NCBI RefSeq assembly: GCF_009931435.1
Contig: NZ_CP043414.1
Strand: one strand, 5' to 3'
Source: Escherichia coli
Lineage (GTDB): Bacteria; Pseudomonadota; Gammaproteobacteria; Enterobacterales; Enterobacteriaceae
Length of the DNA stretch: 64,000 nucleotides
Every line of letters starts with the position of its first letter. The stretch's first letter is position 1. The position numbers and the translations under genes were made by a program. The notes beneath the pieces were generated by a model. It was not told the DNA's origin. It made no database searches and saw only the letters and a list, made by a program, of their open reading frames with translations. Below, piece by piece: positions 449-60,880 of the stretch.

Positions 449-1092
449 CGCTGCAGCTCATCTAATGCAGGGGCGTCCAGATGCGAGATGTCCCCTGCGG
501 TTTCAACCACCCAGCCAGACGCCAGCCACAAGCTTTCCTGATAATCCACGCGCGAAATAGAACAGTTACGCAGACGTAAGCGACGCTCTGCCCATGCTGG
601 TAATCCGAGAATCGTACTCACCAGGCATCCCAGTGCAATACCGTGGCTCACCAGCAGCGGTCGGCTTCCCTGCGGTAATTCCCGACAAGATTCCAGTGCC
701 GCATTGACACGATCGCTGAGCTCCTGCATAGACTCGCCTTCAGGAATACGTCCGTCGACAGTGCCATTGACCAGTTGGCGACGCCAGTTTTCTTCTTCTT
801 CGGTGAGTGAATCGATATTTCTTGTTTCCAGTACACCCATATTTAATTCACGCAGGCGAGAATCAAAGATGATGTCACAGCCGCAGGCCTGGGCGATGAT
901 TTCCGCCGTGCGGCGGGTGCGCCCTAAATCGCTACTGATGATATGCGTAATGCCAAGCTCTTTGGCACGGGTCGCCACCTGCATCGCCTGTTGCTCACCT
1001 TTGGCAGTCAGCGGGCTGTCAGACTGGCCCTGAATACGTCGCTCGGCGTTCCACTGCGTTTCACCGTGGCGGACTAGGTATACCTGTAACAT
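445..1092 (-). CDS. gpmB: Phosphoglycerate mutase family protein GpmB (YtjC)
   Basis: 215-aa ORF starting MLQVYLVRHGETQWN with the histidine phosphatase RHGE motif; expected length and neighbours. Confidence 0.9.
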   Translation of the reverse strand: MLQVYLVRHGETQWNAERRIQGQSDSPLTAKGEQQAMQVATRAKELGITHIISSDLGRTRRTAEIIAQACGCDIIFDSRLRELNMGVLETRNIDSLTEEEENWRRQLVNGTVDGRIPEGESMQELSDRVNAALESCRELPQGSRPLLVSHGIALGCLVSTILGLPAWAERRLRLRNCSISRVDYQESLWLASGWVVETAGDISHLDAPALDELQR

Positions 1093-1131
1093 GCTTTTTT
1101 TCCGTATACTGCTGTAACGTTAATTTTCTGA

Positions 1132-1994
<863 letters not shown>

Positions 1995-2026
1995 TTAGCG
2001 GGGGAAGCAAAATGCCTCCCCCGGTT

Positions 2027-2044
2027 GTACTCGCTAAAGAGTAC
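2027..2044. promoter_or_regulatory. trpR operator (TrpR autoregulation site)
   Basis: GTACTCGCTAAAGAGTAC palindrome 48-65 bp upstream of the trpR start, resembling the trp operator half-sites GTACT/AGTAC. Confidence 0.5.
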
Positions 2045-2068
2045 GATAGCATATCATAAACGTGCGGA

Positions 2069-4006
2069 TCAGTAACGACGTCCCCATTCCGTGGCGCTCA
2101 TCAACGTTGGTTTATCCCCCATGAAATAGCGGTAGTAAGCGTCATAAGCCAGCACGTTCTTCACATAACCGCGCGTCTCAGAGAACGGAATACTCTCGAC
2201 AAATGCCACTGCGTCGATACGACCAGCGCTGTTGCCAAGCCAGGTGCGCACTCGTCCAGGTCCGGCGTTATAAGCTGCTGAGGCGAAAATACGGTTATTG
2301 CCAAACTGCTGATAAACATATTGCAGGTAACTGGTGCCGATGTTGATGTTCGTTTCCGGATCCAGCAATTGCCCAGGGCTGCTGTAGCCAGGAATAGAGA
2401 ACATCTTCACCGTATGGGTCGCCGTACCAGGCATAATCTGCATCAGCCCGCTGGCCCCTACCGGTGACTTCACTTTCGGATTCCAGGCGCTCTCCTGACG
2501 GGCAATCGCCATCGCATAGCTTTGCGGGATCTCCTTACCGCTGGTGTAACGTTTGAAAAAATCGTTGTAGGCCAGCGGGAATCGTTCTTCCAGATGATCC
2601 CACAACTTCCCGGCGATCGTCGCCTGAACGCTGAGATCCCACCATTGGTTGTTGAAAGCATACCGTGCCAGCTGTGCCTGCTCTGTTTTTGACTTGCTCT
2701 TCACCAGATTGGCCCACTCGCTACGCGCGGTGTTATCGAGATTCCAGTACATCAACTCGCGCACGCGCGCCATCTCCGGCCCCTGAGTCAGGGTGCTGTC
2801 AACATTCTGCGGCGCTTTATCAATCTTCAGCTCATACTCTTCGCCGATGCGCTGTGCAGCAACCATCGGGTAGAAACCACGCTGTTGCATGAGTTGATGC
2901 AGAATCTCTTTCGCTTCAGCTTCACGTCCGCGTTCCAGCAATAAATCGGCCTGCCAGTAACGCCATTCATCTTTCTCTTTCGCTTCCATCGGCAAACGCG
3001 CCAGCCAGGTATTCAGGCCACGCCGATCGCCAGTACCAAGCGCCATCCGCACTCGGCGTTCAATCAACGAGGTGGATTGCGAGCGCATAATGGCGTCATC
3101 GCGCCATTTCGCCTGCTCGTCGGTGACATCGTTGCCCATCAAACGCCAGGCGACGATATCGCGCAGTTCCTGAATCTGATCTTCATTAAGCTGCTGTGCC
3201 TGAGCAAGCGATGGAATCATCAGCCGTGCATTTTCAGCATCCTGCCGTGCCACGCTGGCAAACGCCACCGCCGCCATTTGACGGGTAAAATCGGTCGCAC
3301 CGGTTGTACGCGCGAAGGTCAGTACCGTATTAGGGTTGTTCGCCAGAGAAATAATCGCCGAGGCGATAGTCTGGTAATCAGCAGGCATCTGACCTGCCAG
3401 CACTGTCACCAGACCCGTGTTACCCGCTTTCATCGCCAGACGGATACGCTCTAAATACGCCAGCGGATCTTGTTTGCCTGACGCACGCCAGACACTAAAT
3501 AACTTGTCACAAGCGTTAGGCTGGCTCTTGCCGGTTAGCCACAACTCTTTCGCCCCTTGCCAGGCTTCTTCACTCTGCCCGGTGTTCCATTTCGCATAGT
3601 AGTAATTACATTGCGCTTCGGTAGTTCCGGGCTTTTCCGGGCTAAAGGCTAACAAGCCACGCCAGTCTTCACGCCGCGCCAGTTCATTGACGAAACGAGA
3701 TTGCAGCGTGCGAGCGGGAGGAAGCGTGGGGTTAGCGCGAACAAAGTTAGTGACCGTCACCGCCGGTTGATTCATCAGGTCATCGGTGATCTGACGGTAT
3801 TCCAGGTAGGGATAAAGCGGATAATCTTTCAGTCCAGGCATCATTTGTTCGACCACATCCATTTGTCGATTATCCCAGGCCTGCTTAATTTGCGCGTAAC
3901 GGCTACGCTGCTCATCCAGTGAGTCGGCTCGCGCCACGCTGCTGACCGTCAGCAGACAGACACCGACAGCCAACAGCCGCCAGGTAACGTGTTTGGCTTT
4001 TTCCAC
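2069..4006 (-). CDS. slt: Soluble lytic murein transglycosylase Slt70
   Basis: 645-aa ORF with an N-terminal signal peptide and a C-terminal lysozyme-like domain (...ESAWNPKVKSPVGASGLMQIMPGTA...). Confidence 0.95.
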   Translation of the reverse strand: MEKAKHVTWRLLAVGVCLLTVSSVARADSLDEQRSRYAQIKQAWDNRQMDVVEQMMPGLKDYPLYPYLEYRQITDDLMNQPAVTVTNFVRANPTLPPARTLQSRFVNELARREDWRGLLAFSPEKPGTTEAQCNYYYAKWNTGQSEEAWQGAKELWLTGKSQPNACDKLFSVWRASGKQDPLAYLERIRLAMKAGNTGLVTVLAGQMPADYQTIASAIISLANNPNTVLTFARTTGATDFTRQMAAVAFASVARQDAENARLMIPSLAQAQQLNEDQIQELRDIVAWRLMGNDVTDEQAKWRDDAIMRSQSTSLIERRVRMALGTGDRRGLNTWLARLPMEAKEKDEWRYWQADLLLERGREAEAKEILHQLMQQRGFYPMVAAQRIGEEYELKIDKAPQNVDSTLTQGPEMARVRELMYWNLDNTARSEWANLVKSKSKTEQAQLARYAFNNQWWDLSVQATIAGKLWDHLEERFPLAYNDFFKRYTSGKEIPQSYAMAIARQESAWNPKVKSPVGASGLMQIMPGTATHTVKMFSIPGYSSPGQLLDPETNINIGTSYLQYVYQQFGNNRIFASAAYNAGPGRVRTWLGNSAGRIDAVAFVESIPFSETRGYVKNVLAYDAYYRYFMGDKPTLMSATEWGRRY

Positions 4007-4216: not shown

Positions 4217-5884
4217 GTGGCTCAATTCGTTTATACCATGCATCGTGTCGGCAAAGTTGTTCCGCCGAAACGTCATATTTTGAAAAACATCTCTCTGAGT
4301 TTCTTCCCTGGGGCAAAAATTGGTGTCCTGGGTCTGAACGGCGCGGGTAAGTCTACCCTGCTGCGCATTATGGCGGGCATTGATAAAGACATCGAAGGTG
4401 AAGCGCGTCCGCAACCGGATATCAAGATTGGTTACCTGCCGCAGGAACCTCAGCTGAACCCGGAACACACCGTGCGTGAGTCCATTGAAGAAGCGGTTTC
4501 TGAAGTGGTTAACGCTCTGAAACGTCTGGATGAAGTGTATGCGCTGTACGCCGATCCGGATGCCGATTTTGACAAGCTGGCCGCTGAACAAGGCCGTCTG
4601 GAAGAGATCATTCAGGCTCATGACGGTCATAACCTGAACGTTCAGCTGGAGCGTGCGGCGGATGCGCTGCGTCTGCCGGACTGGGACGCGAAAATCGCTA
4701 ACCTTTCCGGTGGTGAGCGTCGTCGCGTGGCGTTGTGCCGCCTGCTGTTGGAAAAACCAGACATGCTGCTGCTCGACGAACCGACCAACCACCTGGATGC
4801 CGAATCCGTAGCGTGGCTGGAACGCTTCCTGCACGACTTCGAGGGCACCGTGGTTGCGATTACCCACGACCGTTACTTCCTCGATAACGTTGCAGGCTGG
4901 ATCCTCGAACTTGACCGCGGTGAAGGTATTCCGTGGGAAGGTAACTACTCCTCCTGGCTGGAGCAGAAAGATCAGCGTCTGGCGCAGGAAGCTTCACAAG
5001 AAGCAGCGCGTCGTAAGTCGATCGAGAAAGAGCTGGAGTGGGTACGTCAGGGAACTAAAGGCCGTCAGTCGAAAGGTAAAGCACGTCTGGCGCGCTTTGA
5101 AGAGCTGAACAGCACCGAATATCAGAAACGTAACGAAACCAACGAACTGTTTATTCCACCTGGACCGCGTCTGGGCGATAAAGTGCTGGAAGTCAGCAAC
5201 CTGCGTAAATCTTACGGCGATCGTCTGCTGATTGATGATCTGAGCTTCTCGATCCCGAAAGGGGCGATCGTCGGGATCATCGGTCCGAACGGCGCGGGTA
5301 AATCAACCCTGTTCCGTATGATCTCTGGTCAGGAACAGCCAGACAGCGGCACCATCACTTTAGGTGAAACGGTGAAACTGGCATCTGTCGATCAGTTCCG
5401 TGACTCAATGGATAACAGCAAAACCGTTTGGGAAGAAGTTTCCGGCGGGCTGGATATCATGAAGATCGGTAACACCGAGATGCCAAGCCGCGCCTACGTT
5501 GGCCGCTTTAACTTTAAAGGGGTTGATCAGGGTAAACGCGTTGGCGAACTCTCCGGTGGTGAGCGTGGTCGTCTGCATCTGGCGAAGCTGCTGCAGGTTG
5601 GCGGCAACATGCTGCTGCTCGACGAACCGACCAACGACCTGGATATCGAAACCCTGCGTGCGCTGGAAAACGCCCTGCTGGAGTTCCCGGGCTGCGCGAT
5701 GGTTATCTCGCACGACCGTTGGTTCCTCGACCGTATCGCCACACACATTCTGGATTACCAGGATGAAGGTAAAGTTGAGTTCTTTGAAGGTAACTTTACC
5801 GAGTACGAAGAGTACAAGAAACGCACGCTGGGCGCAGACGCGCTGGAGCCGAAGCGTATCAAGTACAAGCGTATTGCGAAGTAA
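4217..5884 (+). CDS. ettA: ABC-F translation factor EttA (YjjK)
   Basis: 555 aa with two ABC cassettes (GLNGAGKST..LSGGERRR..LLLDEPTNHLD and GPNGAGKST..LSGGERGR..LLLDEPTNDLD). Confidence 0.95.
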   Translation: MAQFVYTMHRVGKVVPPKRHILKNISLSFFPGAKIGVLGLNGAGKSTLLRIMAGIDKDIEGEARPQPDIKIGYLPQEPQLNPEHTVRESIEEAVSEVVNALKRLDEVYALYADPDADFDKLAAEQGRLEEIIQAHDGHNLNVQLERAADALRLPDWDAKIANLSGGERRRVALCRLLLEKPDMLLLDEPTNHLDAESVAWLERFLHDFEGTVVAITHDRYFLDNVAGWILELDRGEGIPWEGNYSSWLEQKDQRLAQEASQEAARRKSIEKELEWVRQGTKGRQSKGKARLARFEELNSTEYQKRNETNELFIPPGPRLGDKVLEVSNLRKSYGDRLLIDDLSFSIPKGAIVGIIGPNGAGKSTLFRMISGQEQPDSGTITLGETVKLASVDQFRDSMDNSKTVWEEVSGGLDIMKIGNTEMPSRAYVGRFNFKGVDQGKRVGELSGGERGRLHLAKLLQVGGNMLLLDEPTNDLDIETLRALENALLEFPGCAMVISHDRWFLDRIATHILDYQDEGKVEFFEGNFTEYEEYKKRTLGADALEPKRIKYKRIAK

Positions 5885-5894
5885 TGCATAAAAT

Positions 5895-5925
5895 GCCGGA
5901 TGCGGCGCGCCAGCATCGCATCCGG
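5895..5925. terminator. REP-like hairpin downstream of ettA
   Basis: GCCGGATGCG ... CGCATCCGG inverted repeat starting 11 nt after the ettA stop; no clear U-tract, so it may be a REP element rather than a classical terminator. Confidence 0.4.
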
Positions 5926-5939
5926 TAATAGTTAAATGA

Positions 5940-6224
5940 TTAATGGGAGGCAAGTTCCCGGAAAAAGGCAGGATTTTCTTTAATTGTGGCAAGTACTTTT
6001 GCAGCCAATCCCGTAGGATTTCTTCGCTTCGATTCCCAGCTTTTAATGGTATCCACACTGGTTCCCAGAGCTTTTGCCATCTCACTTTGCGAAACGTTGA
6101 GTTGCTCACGAATAGCTTTAACATCCGCAATTTCGTAGCGGGTCACCCGTGCAGGTTCTTTTAAACCTTGTTTAATCTCGACAGCCTCTTCCAGAGAGGT
6201 TTTCAACTCATCAAAAAAACTCAT
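5940..6224 (-). CDS. HTH (XRE-family) antitoxin, HigA-like
   Basis: 94 aa from ATG 6222-6224 (track ORF starts at an upstream GTG, 6236); HTH segment ...IREQLNVSQSEMAKALGTSVDTIKSWESKRRNP...; GAGGT Shine-Dalgarno; starts 2 nt after the toxin stop. Confidence 0.7.
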   Translation of the reverse strand: MSFFDELKTSLEEAVEIKQGLKEPARVTRYEIADVKAIREQLNVSQSEMAKALGTSVDTIKSWESKRRNPTGLAAKVLATIKENPAFFRELASH

Positions 6225-50856: not shown

Positions 50857-51813
50857 ATGAACCCGATTGCAGTTACCCTACTCACCGGTTTTTTAGGCGC
50901 AGGCAAAACCACCCTGCTGCGCCATATTCTTAATGAACAGCACGGCTACAAGATTGCCGTGATTGAAAACGAATTCGGCGAAGTCTCCGTTGATGATCAA
51001 CTGATTGGCGACCGCGCCACGCAGATCAAAACGCTGACCAACGGCTGCATCTGTTGTTCGCGCTCCAACGAGCTGGAGGACGCGCTACTCGACCTGCTGG
51101 ATAATCTCGACAAGGGCAATATTCAGTTCGATCGTCTGGTCATTGAATGCACCGGCATGGCCGATCCCGGCCCGATTATTCAGACCTTTTTCTCCCATGA
51201 GATTTTATGCCAGCGTTACCTGCTGGACGGCGTGATTGCGCTGGTGGATGCGGTACATGCCGATGAGCAGATGAACCAGTTCACCATCGCCCAGTCACAG
51301 GTTGGCTACGCCGACCGCATTCTGCTGACCAAAACCGACGTCGCAGGCGAAGCAGAAAAACTGCGTGAACGCCTGGCACGCATCAACGCCCGCGCACCGG
51401 TCTACACCGTCACCCACGGCGACATCGATCTGGGCCTGCTGTTCAACACCAACGGTTTTATGCTGGAAGAAAACGTCGTCAGCACCAAACCGCGTTTCCA
51501 CTTTATCGCGGATAAACAAAACGATATTTCGTCGATTGTGGTAGAACTGGATTACCCGGTAGATATCAGCGAAGTTTCCCGCGTGATGGAAAACCTGCTG
51601 CTGGAGTCGGCGGATAAACTGCTGCGTTACAAAGGGATGCTATGGATTGACGGCGAACCAAATCGCCTGCTGTTCCAGGGCGTCCAGCGCCTCTACAGCG
51701 CCGACTGGGACCGCCCGTGGGGCGATGAAAAACCGCATAGCACGATGGTGTTTATCGGGATTCAGCTGCCGGAGGAAGAGATTCGGGCTGCGTTTGCGGG
51801 GTTGAGGAAGTAA
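50857..51813 (+). CDS. yjiA: COG0523/CobW-family metal-binding GTPase YjiA
   Basis: Start placed at MNPIAVTLLTGFLGAGKTTLLRHIL... (318 aa); GCICCS metal-binding motif. Confidence 0.9.
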   Translation: MNPIAVTLLTGFLGAGKTTLLRHILNEQHGYKIAVIENEFGEVSVDDQLIGDRATQIKTLTNGCICCSRSNELEDALLDLLDNLDKGNIQFDRLVIECTGMADPGPIIQTFFSHEILCQRYLLDGVIALVDAVHADEQMNQFTIAQSQVGYADRILLTKTDVAGEAEKLRERLARINARAPVYTVTHGDIDLGLLFNTNGFMLEENVVSTKPRFHFIADKQNDISSIVVELDYPVDISEVSRVMENLLLESADKLLRYKGMLWIDGEPNRLLFQGVQRLYSADWDRPWGDEKPHSTMVFIGIQLPEEEIRAAFAGLRK

Positions 51814-51824
51814 AATTTCACATT

Positions 51825-51867
51825 TTTCTTAAGCCGGAAGATATATATACCCCACCGGCTTAAGAAA
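51825..51867. repeat. Inverted repeat at the convergent yjiA / accessory-operon junction
   Basis: TTTCTTAAGCCGG ... CCGGCTTAAGAAA (about 13-bp arms, 17-nt AT-rich spacer); no flanking U-tract on either strand. Confidence 0.4.
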
Positions 51868-51878
51868 GTGCAATTCTC

Positions 51879-52628
51879 TTATGAAACATCACGAAATACA
51901 CAGGTAAGTTCTTTAGGACTTGCTTTCCATATATGGTCAAAGCCACTCGACAGCATGACTTCTATTTTTCCTTCCGGACTTTCAATTAGTAAATAGCGAT
52001 CATGGCAGTTTGTATATTTGGGATTTGTAGTGATTTGCACACTCCATTCAGGATGGATACAATGAACAAAATTACTATTTATTTTACTTCCGTTTTGGAC
52101 TGCAGCGACACCTACTGCGATTTCTGAAAATTCAATAACAAGCTCTTTTCTAGGTAGTACGGAATGAAATAAGCTGCATGTATTCTCCCAATTCTGTGCA
52201 AAGTAATTATCGCATATAATTACTTTTTTTGCATTGCAACATAGCATTTCCAGATACTTTTTTAAATATATTCTATTATCTGTAGGGCTTAATGTAACGG
52301 TAACTTGATTATTAACCATACCTTTTTTATAATGTACAAAGGGAAGTGATAAATTATCATTCTCAGTAAGGATTATTTTCAACAACGATTTAGATGCTAA
52401 AGTAACAAGATCATCATCACTTTCAGGCTGACTTGCTAACATAGATAAATATTGTCGATATTCTAACTCCGGCATCTTCAATCCTAAATTTCTTGCCTCA
52501 ATCCATTGCCTTTTGTTAGTTAAATAAGGTAGTACTAGTTTTTTATGTAATCTCTTCACCTTATTCTTATCATCCATATTTTCATATGCAACTAATAAAG
52601 ATGTATCAAGAACCATTTGATAAGACAT
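51879..52628 (-). CDS. Hypothetical protein, no recognisable domain; third gene of the accessory operon (gene C)
   Basis: 249-aa ORF; ATG 4 nt after the ATPase stop with a GAGGT Shine-Dalgarno; AT-rich coding sequence. Confidence 0.6.
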   Translation of the reverse strand: MSYQMVLDTSLLVAYENMDDKNKVKRLHKKLVLPYLTNKRQWIEARNLGLKMPELEYRQYLSMLASQPESDDDLVTLASKSLLKIILTENDNLSLPFVHYKKGMVNNQVTVTLSPTDNRIYLKKYLEMLCCNAKKVIICDNYFAQNWENTCSLFHSVLPRKELVIEFSEIAVGVAAVQNGSKINSNFVHCIHPEWSVQITTNPKYTNCHDRYLLIESPEGKIEVMLSSGFDHIWKASPKELTCVFRDVS

Positions 52629-52632
52629 TTCT

Positions 52633-53682
52633 TTACCTCATCTTCATCAAATCATCTAAGGTTGCATCAAAAAAACCTAAAGGGAATCCCGTAACATTCT
52701 CTTGCAGATCGGTAAATTTCCCACCTTCATTAACTCTCATCGAGATAAAATCTTTATCCACATCAGGTTTATAATGTACAGAAATATCCTCAGAAGTTAT
52801 AACATCTTCATAAACCAAATACGCAAGTTTATTGATTAAATGTTCACAATGCGTTTCTACAATAATCTGGATACCCTTACTTGCTACAAATGCTAAAAAA
52901 ATTGCCAAATGAGACTGCGCTTTCGGATGCAATTGAATTTCGGGATTTTCTAGCAAAATAAGATCGCCTTTTTTTGCCATCAAACAAATAATCAAAACCT
53001 TTGCAATATAACTCATCCCAGCCCCAAGATTAAGAGGAGAAACATTTCCTTCAAGCTCTTTTAAGGTAAAAGCGACCTTAATCTGGTCACCAACTTTTTC
53101 AGTAACTAATTCAGACGTCGTTCCTGTAATCAGTTTCAACCAATAAGATAATTGATATGCAAGTGTTGTAGATTCGTGAACTTTCACCAGATATTCAGGT
53201 ACTGGCAAATGTTTCATTTTATCAAATGTTGAAAACAAGAATTCTCCTGCAACACCTACTCGACGTTCTGCGGTGGGCACAAATTCTTGTGCCCCCAAGC
53301 GGTTGGCATTCAGATAGAGCAACTCAGGTTCACTACCAGGCACTCTTGGCTCGTATTGATATCCCAGACGACTATCAATTTCGATATTTTCTGAGTTGAG
53401 CGTTAACGAATGAGAATTTTTTTCTGTATCCTGGACTGTTATAACAATAGATTTTGCGTTATTTTTTTTATTTCTAATAACAGGAAAATCAGCTAGAAAT
53501 CGGATAACTTCTTCCATACTATACTGATTAACAGAAGCGCTATTTTTAATTAGTAACATCAATGCCTGAATAACGCTGGATTTACCAGAAGAGTTAGTTC
53601 CAGTTAAAATGGTCAGTGGTGATAACACCAGACTTGTTGAGCCTAAACTTTTAAATCCTTGAATGTTAATATTTGTAAGCAT
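52633..53682 (-). CDS. ABC-type/AAA_21-like ATPase, second gene of the accessory operon (gene B)
   Basis: 349 aa; N-terminal MLTNINIQGFKSLGS... with Walker A GTNSSGKSS; C-terminal Walker B and H-loop (DLILLENPEIQLHP...IIVETHCEHL); start overlaps the upstream gene by 17 nt. Confidence 0.75.
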   Translation of the reverse strand: MLTNINIQGFKSLGSTSLVLSPLTILTGTNSSGKSSVIQALMLLIKNSASVNQYSMEEVIRFLADFPVIRNKKNNAKSIVITVQDTEKNSHSLTLNSENIEIDSRLGYQYEPRVPGSEPELLYLNANRLGAQEFVPTAERRVGVAGEFLFSTFDKMKHLPVPEYLVKVHESTTLAYQLSYWLKLITGTTSELVTEKVGDQIKVAFTLKELEGNVSPLNLGAGMSYIAKVLIICLMAKKGDLILLENPEIQLHPKAQSHLAIFLAFVASKGIQIIVETHCEHLINKLAYLVYEDVITSEDISVHYKPDVDKDFISMRVNEGGKFTDLQENVTGFPLGFFDATLDDLMKMR

Positions 53683-54796
53683 TTTTAATCCTTTCCATTA
53701 TTTCCTTCGCAAAATCAAAACGCATATTTACATATTGTGTTGTATCAATTGCACCAGAAAAAATACCAATCTCATCAAAATTATACTTGTATTGTTCAAT
53801 AAGCTGTTTTAATTCAATATTTTTTGATAAAAATTCAAAACTTATCTGACTGAATACCATAACTAACACTTCGAATAATCCCATATTCACTGGTCGCCTT
53901 TTAGCACCTGATTTTGTTGAAAATCTAAATGCTTCTGAACCCAACGCTTTATAGACATTAGTCATACCAGTTATACAAGCATCTTCAACTTCTTCCAGTA
54001 ACTCATCATCAGCTTTTGTATTAATGAATTTCATCGCAGATGCTAAAAAAGCATCAATATCAGACCTAAATTCAACACCTGGCATTTGATTTGTTACAAG
54101 CAAATAAAATCCTACGAACCGCAAAACCAGATATCTGTCTCGCATACGCTCAGATTTTACGCCATTACCTGTTGCAAGCCTGAAAGACTCGTGTTCAGCG
54201 AGATCCTTAATTAACTTTGTGGCCTTGCCTTGATAAAGAGCATGCCGCATTTCCTGTTTATTTAGATTAATACCACTTCGATTTACACGCTCAAAAATAT
54301 TAAATTTCACATATTCAGGTGTTGGGGGTTGAATCACATAAGAATGTAACTGGCAATCTTCAAGCTTTGCTTGTAATAATGGAGGAATATCAGAAAATTT
54401 TTTTCCTCTCAAGTCAGGCAACATAGATAAATCAGTTAAAGAAAATTCATTGTTAACATAGCGTTTCAATGCAGATATTCGTTGTTTGCCATCAATGATT
54501 TGCCTGACACCATTTTCATCCTCAAAAAGATAAATTAATGGAATAGGAATCCCCATTAAAATAGATTCAATTAATTCTGACTGGTGTTTTCTATCCCAGA
54601 CAAGTTTACGCTGAAAATCTGGAGCAAGAACCAGTTGCCCACGAGCTTCGCGACGGAGTAATTCGAAAACACTGGATTGCTCTTTTGCAATTCGAACCTC
54701 AGTATCTGTCCCCATTTGATGCGGATGAGATGTTAACTCAAGCTCTTCTTGATCTTCGAGTTCAATGCTGTCGTTTTCTACATCCGCATTACTCAT
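53666..54796 (-). CDS. DUF262 (ParB/sulfiredoxin-like NTPase, GmrS-type) domain protein, first gene of the accessory operon (gene A)
   Basis: 376 aa; acidic N-terminal tail then DUF262 motifs PDFQRKLVWDRKHQSELIESILMGIPIPLIYLF...IIDGKQRISAL and FNIFERVNRSGINLNKQEM; no DUF1524/HNH motif found. Confidence 0.75.
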   Translation of the reverse strand: MSNADVENDSIELEDQEELELTSHPHQMGTDTEVRIAKEQSSVFELLRREARGQLVLAPDFQRKLVWDRKHQSELIESILMGIPIPLIYLFEDENGVRQIIDGKQRISALKRYVNNEFSLTDLSMLPDLRGKKFSDIPPLLQAKLEDCQLHSYVIQPPTPEYVKFNIFERVNRSGINLNKQEMRHALYQGKATKLIKDLAEHESFRLATGNGVKSERMRDRYLVLRFVGFYLLVTNQMPGVEFRSDIDAFLASAMKFINTKADDELLEEVEDACITGMTNVYKALGSEAFRFSTKSGAKRRPVNMGLFEVLVMVFSQISFEFLSKNIELKQLIEQYKYNFDEIGIFSGAIDTTQYVNMRFDFAKEIMERIKNAYKY

Positions 54797-55036
54797 GGTA
54801 AAATTACCTTTAAAAATTTATCGAATTATTTATTCATAAAAATAGGGCGCTGAATCAAAATTTCAGCCCCTTAATCAACATGAATTATACCCTAACTTCC
54901 TTCTTGACTGCGACCTTCACTGCACCATTATGCGAGTTATCTCCAGAACATAATGCTCTCATACCGCCCTAAGTCATAGCCAGGCTATTGATTTTATGTA
55001 CAATCAGAATCGTCCTGATAAAAGCGAGAATACCCC

Positions 55037-57469
55037 ATGGCGGAACTGAACCTAAGTAACCTGACGGAAGCAGACATCATTACCAAATGCGTTATGCCAG
55101 CCATTCTCAATGCAGGCTGGGACAACACAACGCAAATCAGACAGGAGGTCAAACTCCGGGACGGTAAAGTCATCGTACGTGGTAAAGTTGCGGCACGCAG
55201 AACGGTAAAATCTGCTGACATCGTGCTGTATCACAAACCAGGCATTCCCTTAGCCGTGATTGAAGCAAAAGCCAACAAACATGAAATTGGCAAAGGGATG
55301 CAACAGGGCATTGAATATGCGCGCCTGCTGGACGTTCCTTTTGTTTTTGCCACCAACGGGGATGGCTTTATCTTCCGCGATGCCACCGCAGCCGAAGGTG
55401 AATGCCTTGAAAAGCAAATAACGCTGGATGACTTCCCCTCCCCCGCTGAACTCTGGCAAAAATTCTGCCTCTGGAAAGGATACACACAAGCTCAGCTTCC
55501 GGTGATTACTCAGGACTATTACGACGATGGCAGCGGTAAATCGCCACGTTATTACCAGCTTCAGGCAATCAACAAAACCATTGAAGCCGTCTCCAACGGG
55601 CAAAACCGCGTTCTGTTGGTCATGGCGACCGGAACAGGGAAAACCTATACCGCATTCCAGATCATCTGGCGCCTGTGGAAATCAAAAAATAAAAAACGCA
55701 TTCTGTTCCTTGCCGATCGCAACATTCTGGTCGACCAAACCAAAAATAATGATTTCCAGCCATTTGGTACGGCAATGACCAAAGTCAGCGGACGCACCAT
55801 TGATCCCGCTTATGAAATTCACCTCGCGCTCTATCAGGCTATAACTGGCCCGGAGGAAGACCAAAAAGCGTTTAAACAAGTCGCACCAGATTTCTTCGAT
55901 CTGATAGTCATCGACGAATGCCATCGCGGCAGCGCATCCGAAGACAGCGCCTGGCGAGAGATCCTTGATTATTTCAGTTCCGCCACCCAAATTGGCTTAA
56001 CCGCCACGCCAAAAGAGACGCATGAAGTCTCCAGCACGGATTACTTCGGCGATCCGGTTTACGTCTACTCGCTAAAAGAAGGGATCGAAGACGGCTTCCT
56101 CGCCCCTTATAAAGTTGTCCGTGTTGATATTGATGTTGATCTGCAAGGCTGGCGCCCAACCAAAGGGCAAACTGACTTAAACGGCGAAGTGATCGACGAT
56201 CGTATCTATAACCAGAAAGATTTCGATCGCACGATGGTAATCGACGAACGCACAGAACTGGTTGCCAGAACCATTACCGACTACCTCAAGCGCACCAATC
56301 CGATGGATAAAACCATCGTCTTCTGTAACGACATCGATCATGCAGAACGTATGCGCCGCGCCCTGGTTAATCTCAACTCGGAGCAGGTGAAAAAGAACGA
56401 CAAATACGTCATGAAAATCACCGGCGATGATGAAATTGGCAAAGCTCAGTTGGATAACTTCATCAACCCGAAAAAACCGTACCCGGTTATCGCGACCACT
56501 TCAGAGCTGATGACCACCGGTGTGGATGCTAAAACCTGCAAACTGGTAGTACTGGACCAGAACATCCAGTCGATGACCAAATTCAAGCAGATTATCGGTC
56601 GTGGTACACGCATCGACGAACGTTACGGCAAACTCTGGTTTACCATCCTCGACTTTAAAAAAGCCACCGAACTGTTTGCCGATGAGCGTTTCGATGGCAT
56701 TCCCGAAAAAGTCATGGATACCACACCAGAGGATATCACCGATCCAGAATCTGATTTTGAAGAGAAACTCGAAGAAATCAGCGAACATGACGACGAACAG
56801 GTAACGGGCGTTGATGAACCGCCTGCGCCACCATACCAGGTTACCGATACCGATGATGTCGGCCCACTTCCGGAAGAAGACGAGAAGAAAATCCGCAAGT
56901 TTCACGTCAACGGTGTCGCGGTGGGCGTTATTGCGCAGCGTGTTCAGTATTACGATGCCGACGGTAAACTGGTTACCGAATCTTTTAAAGATTACACCCG
57001 CAAAACACTGCTCAAAGAATATGCCTCGCTGGATGACTTTACCCGCAAGTGGCAGGACGCCGATCGCAAAGAAGCGATCATTCACGAGCTGGAGCAACAG
57101 GGGATCATCTGGGAAGTACTGGCAGAAGAAGTCGGTAAAGATCTCGACCCGTTCGACATGCTTTGCCACGTAGTGTATGGTCAGCCGCCGTTAACCCGCA
57201 AAGAGCGCGCCGAGAACGTGCGCAAGCGGAACTACTTCACAAAATACTCTGAAGCAGCGCAAGCCGTGCTCGATAATCTGCTGGATAAATACGCCGATGC
57301 GGGCGTACAGGAGATCGAAAGTATTCAGGTGCTGAAACTTAAACCATTCGACAGCATGGGCACTTTACCGGAGATTATTAAAACCGGATTTGGCGACCGT
57401 AACGGGTATAATCAGGCGCTCAGCGAGCTGGAAAACGAAATCTACCAATTACCGCCCCGCTCTGCTTAA
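55037..57469 (+). CDS. hsdR: Type I restriction enzyme R subunit HsdR (short, Type IB-like form)
   Basis: 810 aa; N-terminal PD-(D/E)xK nuclease region and SF2 helicase motifs [26 protein letters not shown]. Confidence 0.9.
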
Positions 57470-57483
57470 CAACTCTCTTTTGC

Positions 57484-57522
57484 GCCTTCTGCAACCATCA
57501 TGTTGCAGAAGGCCTTGTTTTT
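57484..57522 (+). terminator. Rho-independent terminator between hsdR and hsdM
   Basis: Perfect 12-bp stem GCCTTCTGCAAC / GTTGCAGAAGGC with a 6-nt loop, followed by CTTGTTTTTC. Confidence 0.55.
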
Positions 57523-60753: not shown

Positions 60754-60775
60754 TTTTCTCGCCCTCATAAAACCA

Positions 60776-60801
60776 ATAAAGCGGCTAAATAGCCGCTTTA
60801 T
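60776..60801. terminator. Hairpin downstream of hsdS
   Basis: ATAAAGCGGCT-AAAT-AGCCGCTTTAT palindrome 23 nt after the hsdS stop; no strong U-tract. Confidence 0.35.
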
Positions 60802-60880
60802 TCACATCACCAAAAATTATATTTTACGCTAATTTTCATCTTATTTTCATTAATTTTTAGCTGGACTTTCCCCATATTTA

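Follow-up and report, generated by a model that had tools for sequence, protein, structure and literature searches.

A structure-conserved stem-loop at the 3' end of the Menshen operon next to yjiA in Escherichia coli and its probable role at the ends of Rho-terminated transcripts

A long inverted repeat lies at the point where the conserved gene yjiA of Escherichia coli gives way to an accessory operon, and the question that it raises is whether it belongs to the junction, to the operon, or to the transcripts that meet there. The preliminary description of this DNA had offered two readings, namely that the repeat may mark the insertion junction of the operon or that it may act as a bidirectional transcription barrier. 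The locus is examined here in the window, i.e., the whole stretch of 64,000 nucleotides that was analysed, and in its relatives from other genomes and metagenomes.

The yjiA-hsdR slot and its inverted repeat

The genes before yjiA are btsT (yjiY) and yjiX, and a type I hsdR of the EcoAI/EcoEI family is located at 55037-57469, beyond the operon. The enterobacterial immigration control region is known as a hypervariable defence island with yjiA and yjiN as its borders (PMC12707154); the window locus is the yjiA end of this region, and the cassette fills the yjiA-hsdR slot. The three co-oriented genes of the cassette match the PADLOC profiles of NsnA (DUF262/ParB-like), NsnB (ABC ATPase), and NsnC over near full length, which gives a name to what had been described as 'gene C' (nsnC) of an accessory operon. 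As predicted from its genes, the operon is the Menshen (NsnABC) defence system. NsnA-B-C constitute the Menshen anti-phage system, with which the gene composition agrees, and NsnC is its predicted nuclease effector (PMC12065111). The features of the locus are as follows.

50857-51813, plus strand: yjiA (GTPase; 318-aa annotated form), the conserved anchor gene, convergent with nsnC; its transcript would also enter the hairpin
51814-51824: 11-nt spacer from the yjiA stop to the stem base, the first strain-specific DNA past the E. coli homology break
51825-51867, both directions (convergent transcription): stem-loop with 13-nt arms and loop 51838-51854; covarying homologous hairpins occur in relatives
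51868-51878: 11-nt spacer from the stem to the nsnC stop codon, 10-14 nt in all intact relatives
51879-52628, minus strand: nsnC (249 aa), last gene of the Menshen operon (PADLOC NsnC, E 2.2e-71; homologues); its mRNA would end in the hairpin
52633-53682, minus strand: nsnB (349 aa), ABC/AAA_15-AAA_21 ATPase (PADLOC NsnB, E 1.5e-78; Pfam AAA_15/AAA_21)
53666-54796, minus strand: nsnA (376 aa), DUF262/GmrSD_N protein (PADLOC NsnA, E 2e-110; Pfam GmrSD_N)
51814-54962: low-GC variable segment from yjiA to the region upstream of the type I hsdR, 29-40% GC as against ~50-58% in the flanks

The homology of 5,382 out of 5,426 complete E. coli genomes breaks exactly at the yjiA stop (51813), and the repeat therefore does sit at the edge of accessory DNA, as had been described. 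In 563 genomes, that of O157:H7 among them, E. coli homology returns only at 54963, which is 74 bp upstream of hsdR. The 3.1-kb segment in between (51814-54962) is absent from all 5,426 complete genomes by distant-mode BLAST, in which only the 74 bp upstream of hsdR were matched, and the hairpin with its flanks found no BLAST match in the same genomes at E<=10. One draft contig of E. coli (L001, GCA_014719615.1) carries the cassette, and L082, a metagenome contig of 1.8 kb, shows zero mismatches to window positions 51805-53602. The same repeat is absent from mrr-carrying strains, where its presence would have counted against a link with the accessory DNA.

The arms TTTCTTAAGCCGG (51825-51837) and CCGGCTTAAGAAA (51855-51867) are 13 nt each and 100% complementary, and they enclose a spacer of 17 nt, AAGATATATATACCCCA (51838-51854), which includes ATATATATA. 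The repeat occupies the 65-nt gap (51814-51878) between the convergent yjiA and nsnC stops, at 11 nt from the stop on the yjiA side and 11 nt on the nsnC side, so that its original description was exact. A CCGG/CCGG core lies inside the 13-bp perfect stem, which makes it a G+C-rich stem-loop. The nsnC-sense (minus-strand) RNA folds at -28.7 kcal/mol (z = -4.8; 0/200 shuffles fold as well), the loop contributing extra G.U-rich pairs, and the plus-strand RNA folds at -20.8 kcal/mol (z = -3.3). No more than 7 inverted repeats in the whole 64-kb window are of comparable quality, and the repeat is beyond chance.

The remark that the repeat lacks a U-tract and is no standard terminator was also borne out. 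There is no T-run 3' of the stem on either strand, nor an upstream A-tract; the sequence that follows the stem is AAATGTGAAATT in the nsnC sense and GTGCAATTCTCT in the yjiA sense, both falling short of a U-tract (~5+ U in 8 nt), and a terminator scan of the window did not flag 51825-51867. Rfam at a permissive threshold returned only sub-threshold eukaryotic miRNA/snoRNA-like matches, the best being a miRNA precursor with 21 bits against a gathering score of 78, and these matches reflect a generic hairpin.

Conservation of the hairpin among Menshen operons

Relatives were taken as the close NsnC homologues (76-100% identity), which were traced to their contigs by exact-protein look-ups. The E. 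coli draft contig has the same hairpin with 1 nt different in the loop, and the hairpin of L082 is identical. Salmonella has the operon at the same yjiA-hsdR site, in a stretch of 6 kb that is collinear with the window (~79% identity), with a hairpin of other sequence (ATTTTGCCGG aataac CCGGCAAAAT). The operon of Klebsiella adjoins smpB and carries the hairpin TTTTCGACCGGGTG...CACCCGGTCAGAAAA; Yersinia, Dickeya, and a prophage-like context (DinI and RusA neighbours) provide further sites, each with its own hairpin version. As the hairpin is found after nsnC at different chromosomal sites in other genera, it belongs to the operon and not to the junction. The stem base starts 10-14 nt past the nsnC stop in every intact variant.

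For the table of base pairs, the variants were anchored on their shared CCGR/YCGG core and the pairs were counted by script; a MAFFT alignment, which put the window and Salmonella arms out of register (unequal loop lengths), was not used for it. Compensatory double changes keep the pairing at 8 of 16 stem positions among the six intact variants. The pairing of own arms amounts to 10.2/11, as against 8.0/11 when a left arm is matched to right arms from other variants, and in a permutation check only the true arm assignment, 1 in 720, reaches the observed pairing total. Judging from these comparisons, the hairpin is a selected, structure-conserved element of the Menshen operon 3' end, in which selection acts on the pairing rather than on the sequence.

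It may be argued that the palindrome is a relic with little or no function that has been kept by descent. The hairpin is indeed lost or decayed in 3 of 9 sequence variants (L090, Serratia, and L089), a contrast that is partly circular since the 'intact' and 'decayed' groups were set by eye before the pairs were counted. L089 retains only the A/T-rich stem base; in L090, the copy in a P2-type prophage hotspot, the decay of the hairpin goes along with a fragmentation of nsnA and nsnB; and in Serratia the hairpin is decayed though the operon is intact, a canonical terminator-like hairpin being located ~60 nt downstream. The hairpin is thus dispensable, as seen in Serratia and in L089. Against the relic stand the compensatory doubles at 8 stem positions and an own-arm pairing above that of 719 of the 720 permutations, which would be hard to retain without selection at ~76-80% overall DNA identity, and this explanation is considered quite unlikely.

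The folding energies of the sense and antisense strands show no consistent strand bias among the relatives, and hence covariation alone cannot separate RNA from single-stranded DNA, nor one transcript from the other. The stem varies in length from 13 perfect pairs in the window up to ~17 in relatives. The polarity of its lower half (T-rich 5' and A-rich 3') is conserved, a feature that a role at transcript ends explains only as a lengthening of the helix.

Among more distant homologues, a profile search of genome contigs with the NsnC alignment gave 7 loci, none with the hairpin, and the hairpin is missing in distant Menshen loci where a same-strand gene directly follows nsnC. Three marine gammaproteobacterial Menshen loci (L010, L014, and L015) have a large same-strand ORF directly after, or overlapping, nsnC. 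The one in L014 (5708-9001) encodes 1,097 aa, and its N-terminus is by eye a candidate hsdR-like sequence; an association of Menshen with type I R-M has already been reported (PMC12065111).

The L090 locus deserves a separate mention. In it, a Phage_GPA replication gene and a portal gene of a P2-like prophage enclose a pseudogenised Menshen operon (833-3750), with nsnA split into pieces of 145 aa and 201 aa and nsnB truncated, and a SEFIR/TIR-domain gene (4661-6097) adjoins it. The locus looks like decaying defence-hotspot cargo.

Dispersed repeats, insertion ends, and recombination at the yjiA stop

Further copies of the hairpin, searched for in the 64-kb window with up to 2 mismatches, amounted only to scattered chance matches. 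The pattern CTTAAGCCGG-N10-25-CCGGCTTAAG has 0 matches in viral contigs and 52 in metagenomes, where 51 are unrelated hairpins and 1 is the same element, linked to nsnC (L082). A dispersed repeat of the REP/BIME kind was rejected, as many copies were found neither in the window nor in the 5,426 E. coli genomes or the metagenomes. A form aattgcctccggCTTAAGCCGGaggtt...CCGGCTTAAGccaaat recurs in a dozen or more soil metagenome contigs (L040, L041, L053, L055, L059, L061, L069, L084, and others); it looks like a separate repeated palindromic family, with the CTTAAGCCGG core in common by coincidence.

The reading as an insertion junction fared no better. A matching repeat had been suggested for the other cassette end near 54800-55030; no arm copy was found there, and no inverted or direct repeat or target duplication joins the two ends. 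Moreover, in Yersinia L020 and the P2-like L090 homology runs past the hairpin into ~155 nt of yjiA (aa 292-346; E 2e-7 and 2.5e-8), where the remnant consists of the frameshifted last ~55 codons. Shorter remnants are present in L089 and Dickeya and, by eye, in Klebsiella. The yjiA remnants just past the hairpin are located as follows.

L020, 4813-4968: yjiA remnant
L090, 3815-3965: yjiA remnant
L089, ~1286-1348: yjiA remnant
L022, ~4811-4843: yjiA remnant
L006, ~5810-5860: yjiA remnant

The spacer 51814-51824 likewise has homologous counterparts in Salmonella and in the remnant of Yersinia. At the opposite end, the common homology starts ~190 nt upstream of nsnA, slightly beyond the start of the O157-type homology upstream of hsdR. 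The fragments suggest that the Menshen copies that carry them (Yersinia, Dickeya, Klebsiella, and the P2-type prophage hotspot) trace back to a yjiA-adjacent ancestor and moved with flanking DNA. With no partner repeat or duplication, with homology passing through the hairpin into a yjiA fragment, and with the hairpin travelling with nsnC to other sites, the junction or terminal-repeat reading is not supported.

A broader proposal is that the hairpin works at the DNA level as a recombination or insertion element (a boundary signal, terminal repeat, att/attC-like site, or crossover hotspot) that swaps defence cargo beside yjiA. It is situated 11 nt from the end of E. coli homology, and the conservation of structure over sequence would also be expected of a hairpin recognised as single-stranded DNA. 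Like integron attC, it is a structure-conserved, imperfectly sequence-conserved palindrome at the 3' end of a gene cassette. Unlike attC, it has no R''/R' core, integron integrase, or cassette array, and the common segment extends past the hairpin in several loci; the attC core GTTRRRY/RYYYAAC is absent, and no GTT or AAC trinucleotide occurs in 51805-51885. In most loci the cassette has neither an integrase nor a transposase beside it, and a Pfam scan of four neighbouring proteins found no tyrosine-recombinase family (e.g. Phage_integrase).

A switch in divergence also speaks for this proposal. Between the window and L001, the cassette has 3 differences in 758 positions (0.4%) and yjiA has 36 in 1,041 (3.5%); the switch from one level to the other falls within 51798-51839, and up to the stop codon neither yjiA allele is out of the ordinary for E. 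coli. A control pair of mrr-type strains, BL21 and E308, which are devoid of the nsn hairpin, shows a like switch, with 3.1% in yjiA, 0% in the REP gap, and 0.77% in mrr, the yjiA divergence extending to 24 nt before the end of the stop codon (L024/L026 4290-4486). The hairpin as a crossover point is weakened by this pair, since the same switch there makes it a property of the variable locus and not of a hairpin-specific mechanism. From these alignments, we infer that recombination tracts end where homology ends, and their ends seem to accumulate at the heterology boundary; compared with the anchor-gene alleles beside them, those of the cargo look much younger. In view of the like switch, the homology that runs through the hairpin into yjiA, and the absence of a partner repeat, mobility genes, an attC core, or dispersed copies, a DNA-level recombination element has a very slim chance of being correct.

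It is also highly unlikely that the hairpin is a Menshen-specific cis element, either a single-stranded DNA or RNA signal for the capture or swapping of the cassette at the yjiA edge or a device for the tuning of NsnC. If true, it would explain why the T-run/stem/A-run arrangement is conserved across genera and how the cassette has spread to prophage hotspots and islands without a mobility gene.

Ends of the convergent transcripts

Other cargoes in the slot provide a comparison. In K-12 and BL21, a 13-nt-arm imperfect palindrome without a U-tract (GGCCGGATAAGGC/GCCGCATCCGGCC; BL21 L024 4324-4352) lies between yjiA and mrr, and by eye we take it to be of the REP type. REP elements form a dispersed multi-copy family; the window hairpin does not match the REP consensus, and nothing is alike between it and the K-12 palindrome beyond CCGG. 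The two share the short convergent gap beside a defence gene, the arm length, and the want of a U-tract, whereas their sequences are unrelated and the nsn hairpin is single-copy and cassette-specific. O157:H7 has an unrelated perfect 10-nt-arm inverted repeat (AGAGTTCCAC/GTGGAACTCT; L025 4338-4373) between yjiA and an HNH/DUF262 gene pair. In the yjiA-hsdR slot, every alternative cargo examined comes with a convergent-gap hairpin of its own, and such cargo-specific hairpins help to annotate cargo boundaries in the immigration control region.

The transcript ends at the K-12 palindrome have been mapped. Term-seq places the primary yjiA 3' end at 4587866 (Adams et al., 2021; PMC7815308, supplementary file 1), which from the sequence and coordinates is 43 nt past the stop codon and 5 nt past the REP-type stem. 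A Rho termination region follows 277 nt further on along the same strand, antisense to mrr (Rho score 6.7, p = 7e-24), and one on the opposite strand lies 89 nt into yjiA antisense (Rho score 3.6, p = 8e-5) (PMC7815308, supplementary file 2). It would appear that in K-12 the two convergent transcripts run past the hairpin until each comes to a Rho termination region within the opposing gene, with a stable yjiA end at the hairpin. The yjiA of the window is ~97-98% identical to that of K-12, and because this sequence is common to both, an nsnC transcript would, by analogy, meet the same Rho termination region as the mrr transcripts of K-12.

The hairpin is best explained, with a probability of roughly two in three, as the RNA stem-loop in which both the nsnABC transcript and the convergent yjiA transcript have their 3' ends, and which defines and protects these ends after Rho-dependent termination. 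RNA polymerase would read through the hairpin, where the missing U-tract would allow no intrinsic release, and would run on into the untranslated antisense of the opposing gene, where Rho would load on C-rich RNA and terminate transcription. The 3'-to-5' exonucleases would then trim the RNA back to the stable 13-bp stem. The outcome would be a precise, protected 3' end a few nt past the stem and less antisense RNA over the neighbouring gene; with the stem ~11 nt past each stop codon, the terminating ribosome probably need not melt it. The hairpin would in this way behave like that of K-12, with the 3' end at the stem and Rho acting beyond.

Rho-dependent transcript ends of E. coli have been characterized by stem-loops without a U-rich tail or an upstream A-tract, followed by an enrichment of C over G, and such stem-loops protect against PNPase and RNase II (Dar and Sorek, 2018; PMC6061677). 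The window hairpin has these features, i.e., a stable stem past the gene, neither U-tail nor A-tract, and more C than G downstream. The C/G ratio in the nsnC sense is 2.8, 2.55, and 2.0 over 50, 80, and 100 nt downstream; among all 100-nt windows of the sequence, the last value ranks at the 98th percentile. In the yjiA sense the enrichment is less marked (1.0-1.4), and it varies among relatives (0.9-2.1). The tract in question is as follows.

51725-51824, minus strand: C-rich, G-poor tract (C/G = 2.0), a candidate Rho-loading region in the antisense of the yjiA 3' end, directly downstream of the hairpin in the nsnC direction

The likeness to the published stem-loops thus extends to position, the absence of U-tail and A-tract, the downstream composition, and the predicted end-protecting role. 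The window stem differs in that it appears longer than a typical terminator stem and has a conserved lower half that is T-rich 5' and A-rich 3'. As one more U-tract-less stem-loop among the many that end E. coli transcripts, it would be of little weight by itself, but it makes a concrete prediction for how the Menshen operon transcript ends.

The bidirectional barrier of the preliminary description comes close to this explanation; what would change is the agent, as termination is likely to be due to Rho beyond the hairpin and not to a block by the hairpin itself. In the stricter version, a non-canonical bidirectional terminator or roadblock, the hairpin would pause or release the polymerase both ways with no need for Rho. 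A stable 13-bp perfect stem (-20.8 and -28.7 kcal/mol) between convergent genes, in a position typical of bidirectional terminators and conserved with the operon, is what such a device would require. Bidirectional intrinsic terminators between convergent genes were reportedly described by Ju, Li, and Liu in 2019, and they resemble the present case in that one hairpin in the convergent gap is common to both transcripts. However, those terminators are built as A-tract/stem/U-tract, as for example at 60775-60802 in the window, whereas the T-run/stem/A-run polarity of this hairpin is the reverse. No U-tract occurs within ~10 nt 3' of the stem on either strand in 6/6 intact variants, the terminator scan is silent, and the Rho termination regions of K-12 lie beyond the analogous hairpin in both directions. 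A roadblock acting on its own is therefore unlikely.

The spacing between stop and stem could also point to translation, with a hairpin ~11 nt past the stop hindering the terminating ribosome and so lowering the output of the toxic effector NsnC. Liang, Rudd, and Deutscher (2015) are said to have found such an effect for REP elements within ~15 nt of stop codons. The distance of 10-14 nt in all intact variants, and of 11 nt on both sides in the window, would suit this regulation, and tight dosage control of a predicted nuclease effector is plausible. The same spacing, on the other hand, would be expected just as much from simple compaction, or from a 3'-end hairpin that lies a little beyond the footprint of the ribosome, and regulation of translation termination is hardly probable.

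The Rho-terminated 3' end would not be the only structured end of the operon. Upstream of nsnA, a leader region is conserved in the window, L002, L006, L017, L020, L022, L027, and L090, in which a GGGTATAAT box is followed after 12-20 nt by a covarying hairpin and T-run and then by ~35 nt, an RBS, and the nsnA ATG. Its coordinates in the window are as follows.

54836-54892, minus strand: conserved cassette 5' region with a -10-like GGGTATAAT box (54884-54892), then the leader hairpin GCTGAA..TTCAGC (54849-54867), then TATTTTTAT

The leader hairpin and T-run read GGGGCTGAA..TTCAGCGCCC TATTTTTAT in the window, AACGCTGAAT..ATTCAGCGTT GTATTTTG in Salmonella, and GCTCTGA..TCAGAGC CCTTTTTTG in Klebsiella, and the sequences of the leader and 3' hairpins are unrelated. 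Placed between the promoter and nsnA, the leader hairpin resembles an intrinsic terminator and could serve to attenuate the expression of Menshen. Neither a terminator nor an RNA hairpin turned up in a term search of the Menshen paper (PMC12065111). With hairpins at both the leader and the 3' end, the expression of the Menshen operon may be controlled at both ends.

A perfect inverted repeat with 12-nt arms (GCCTTCTGCAAC/GTTGCAGAAGGC) is also present at 57484-57513 of the window, 15 nt past the hsdR stop (57469), and is probably another gene-end hairpin of the same island.
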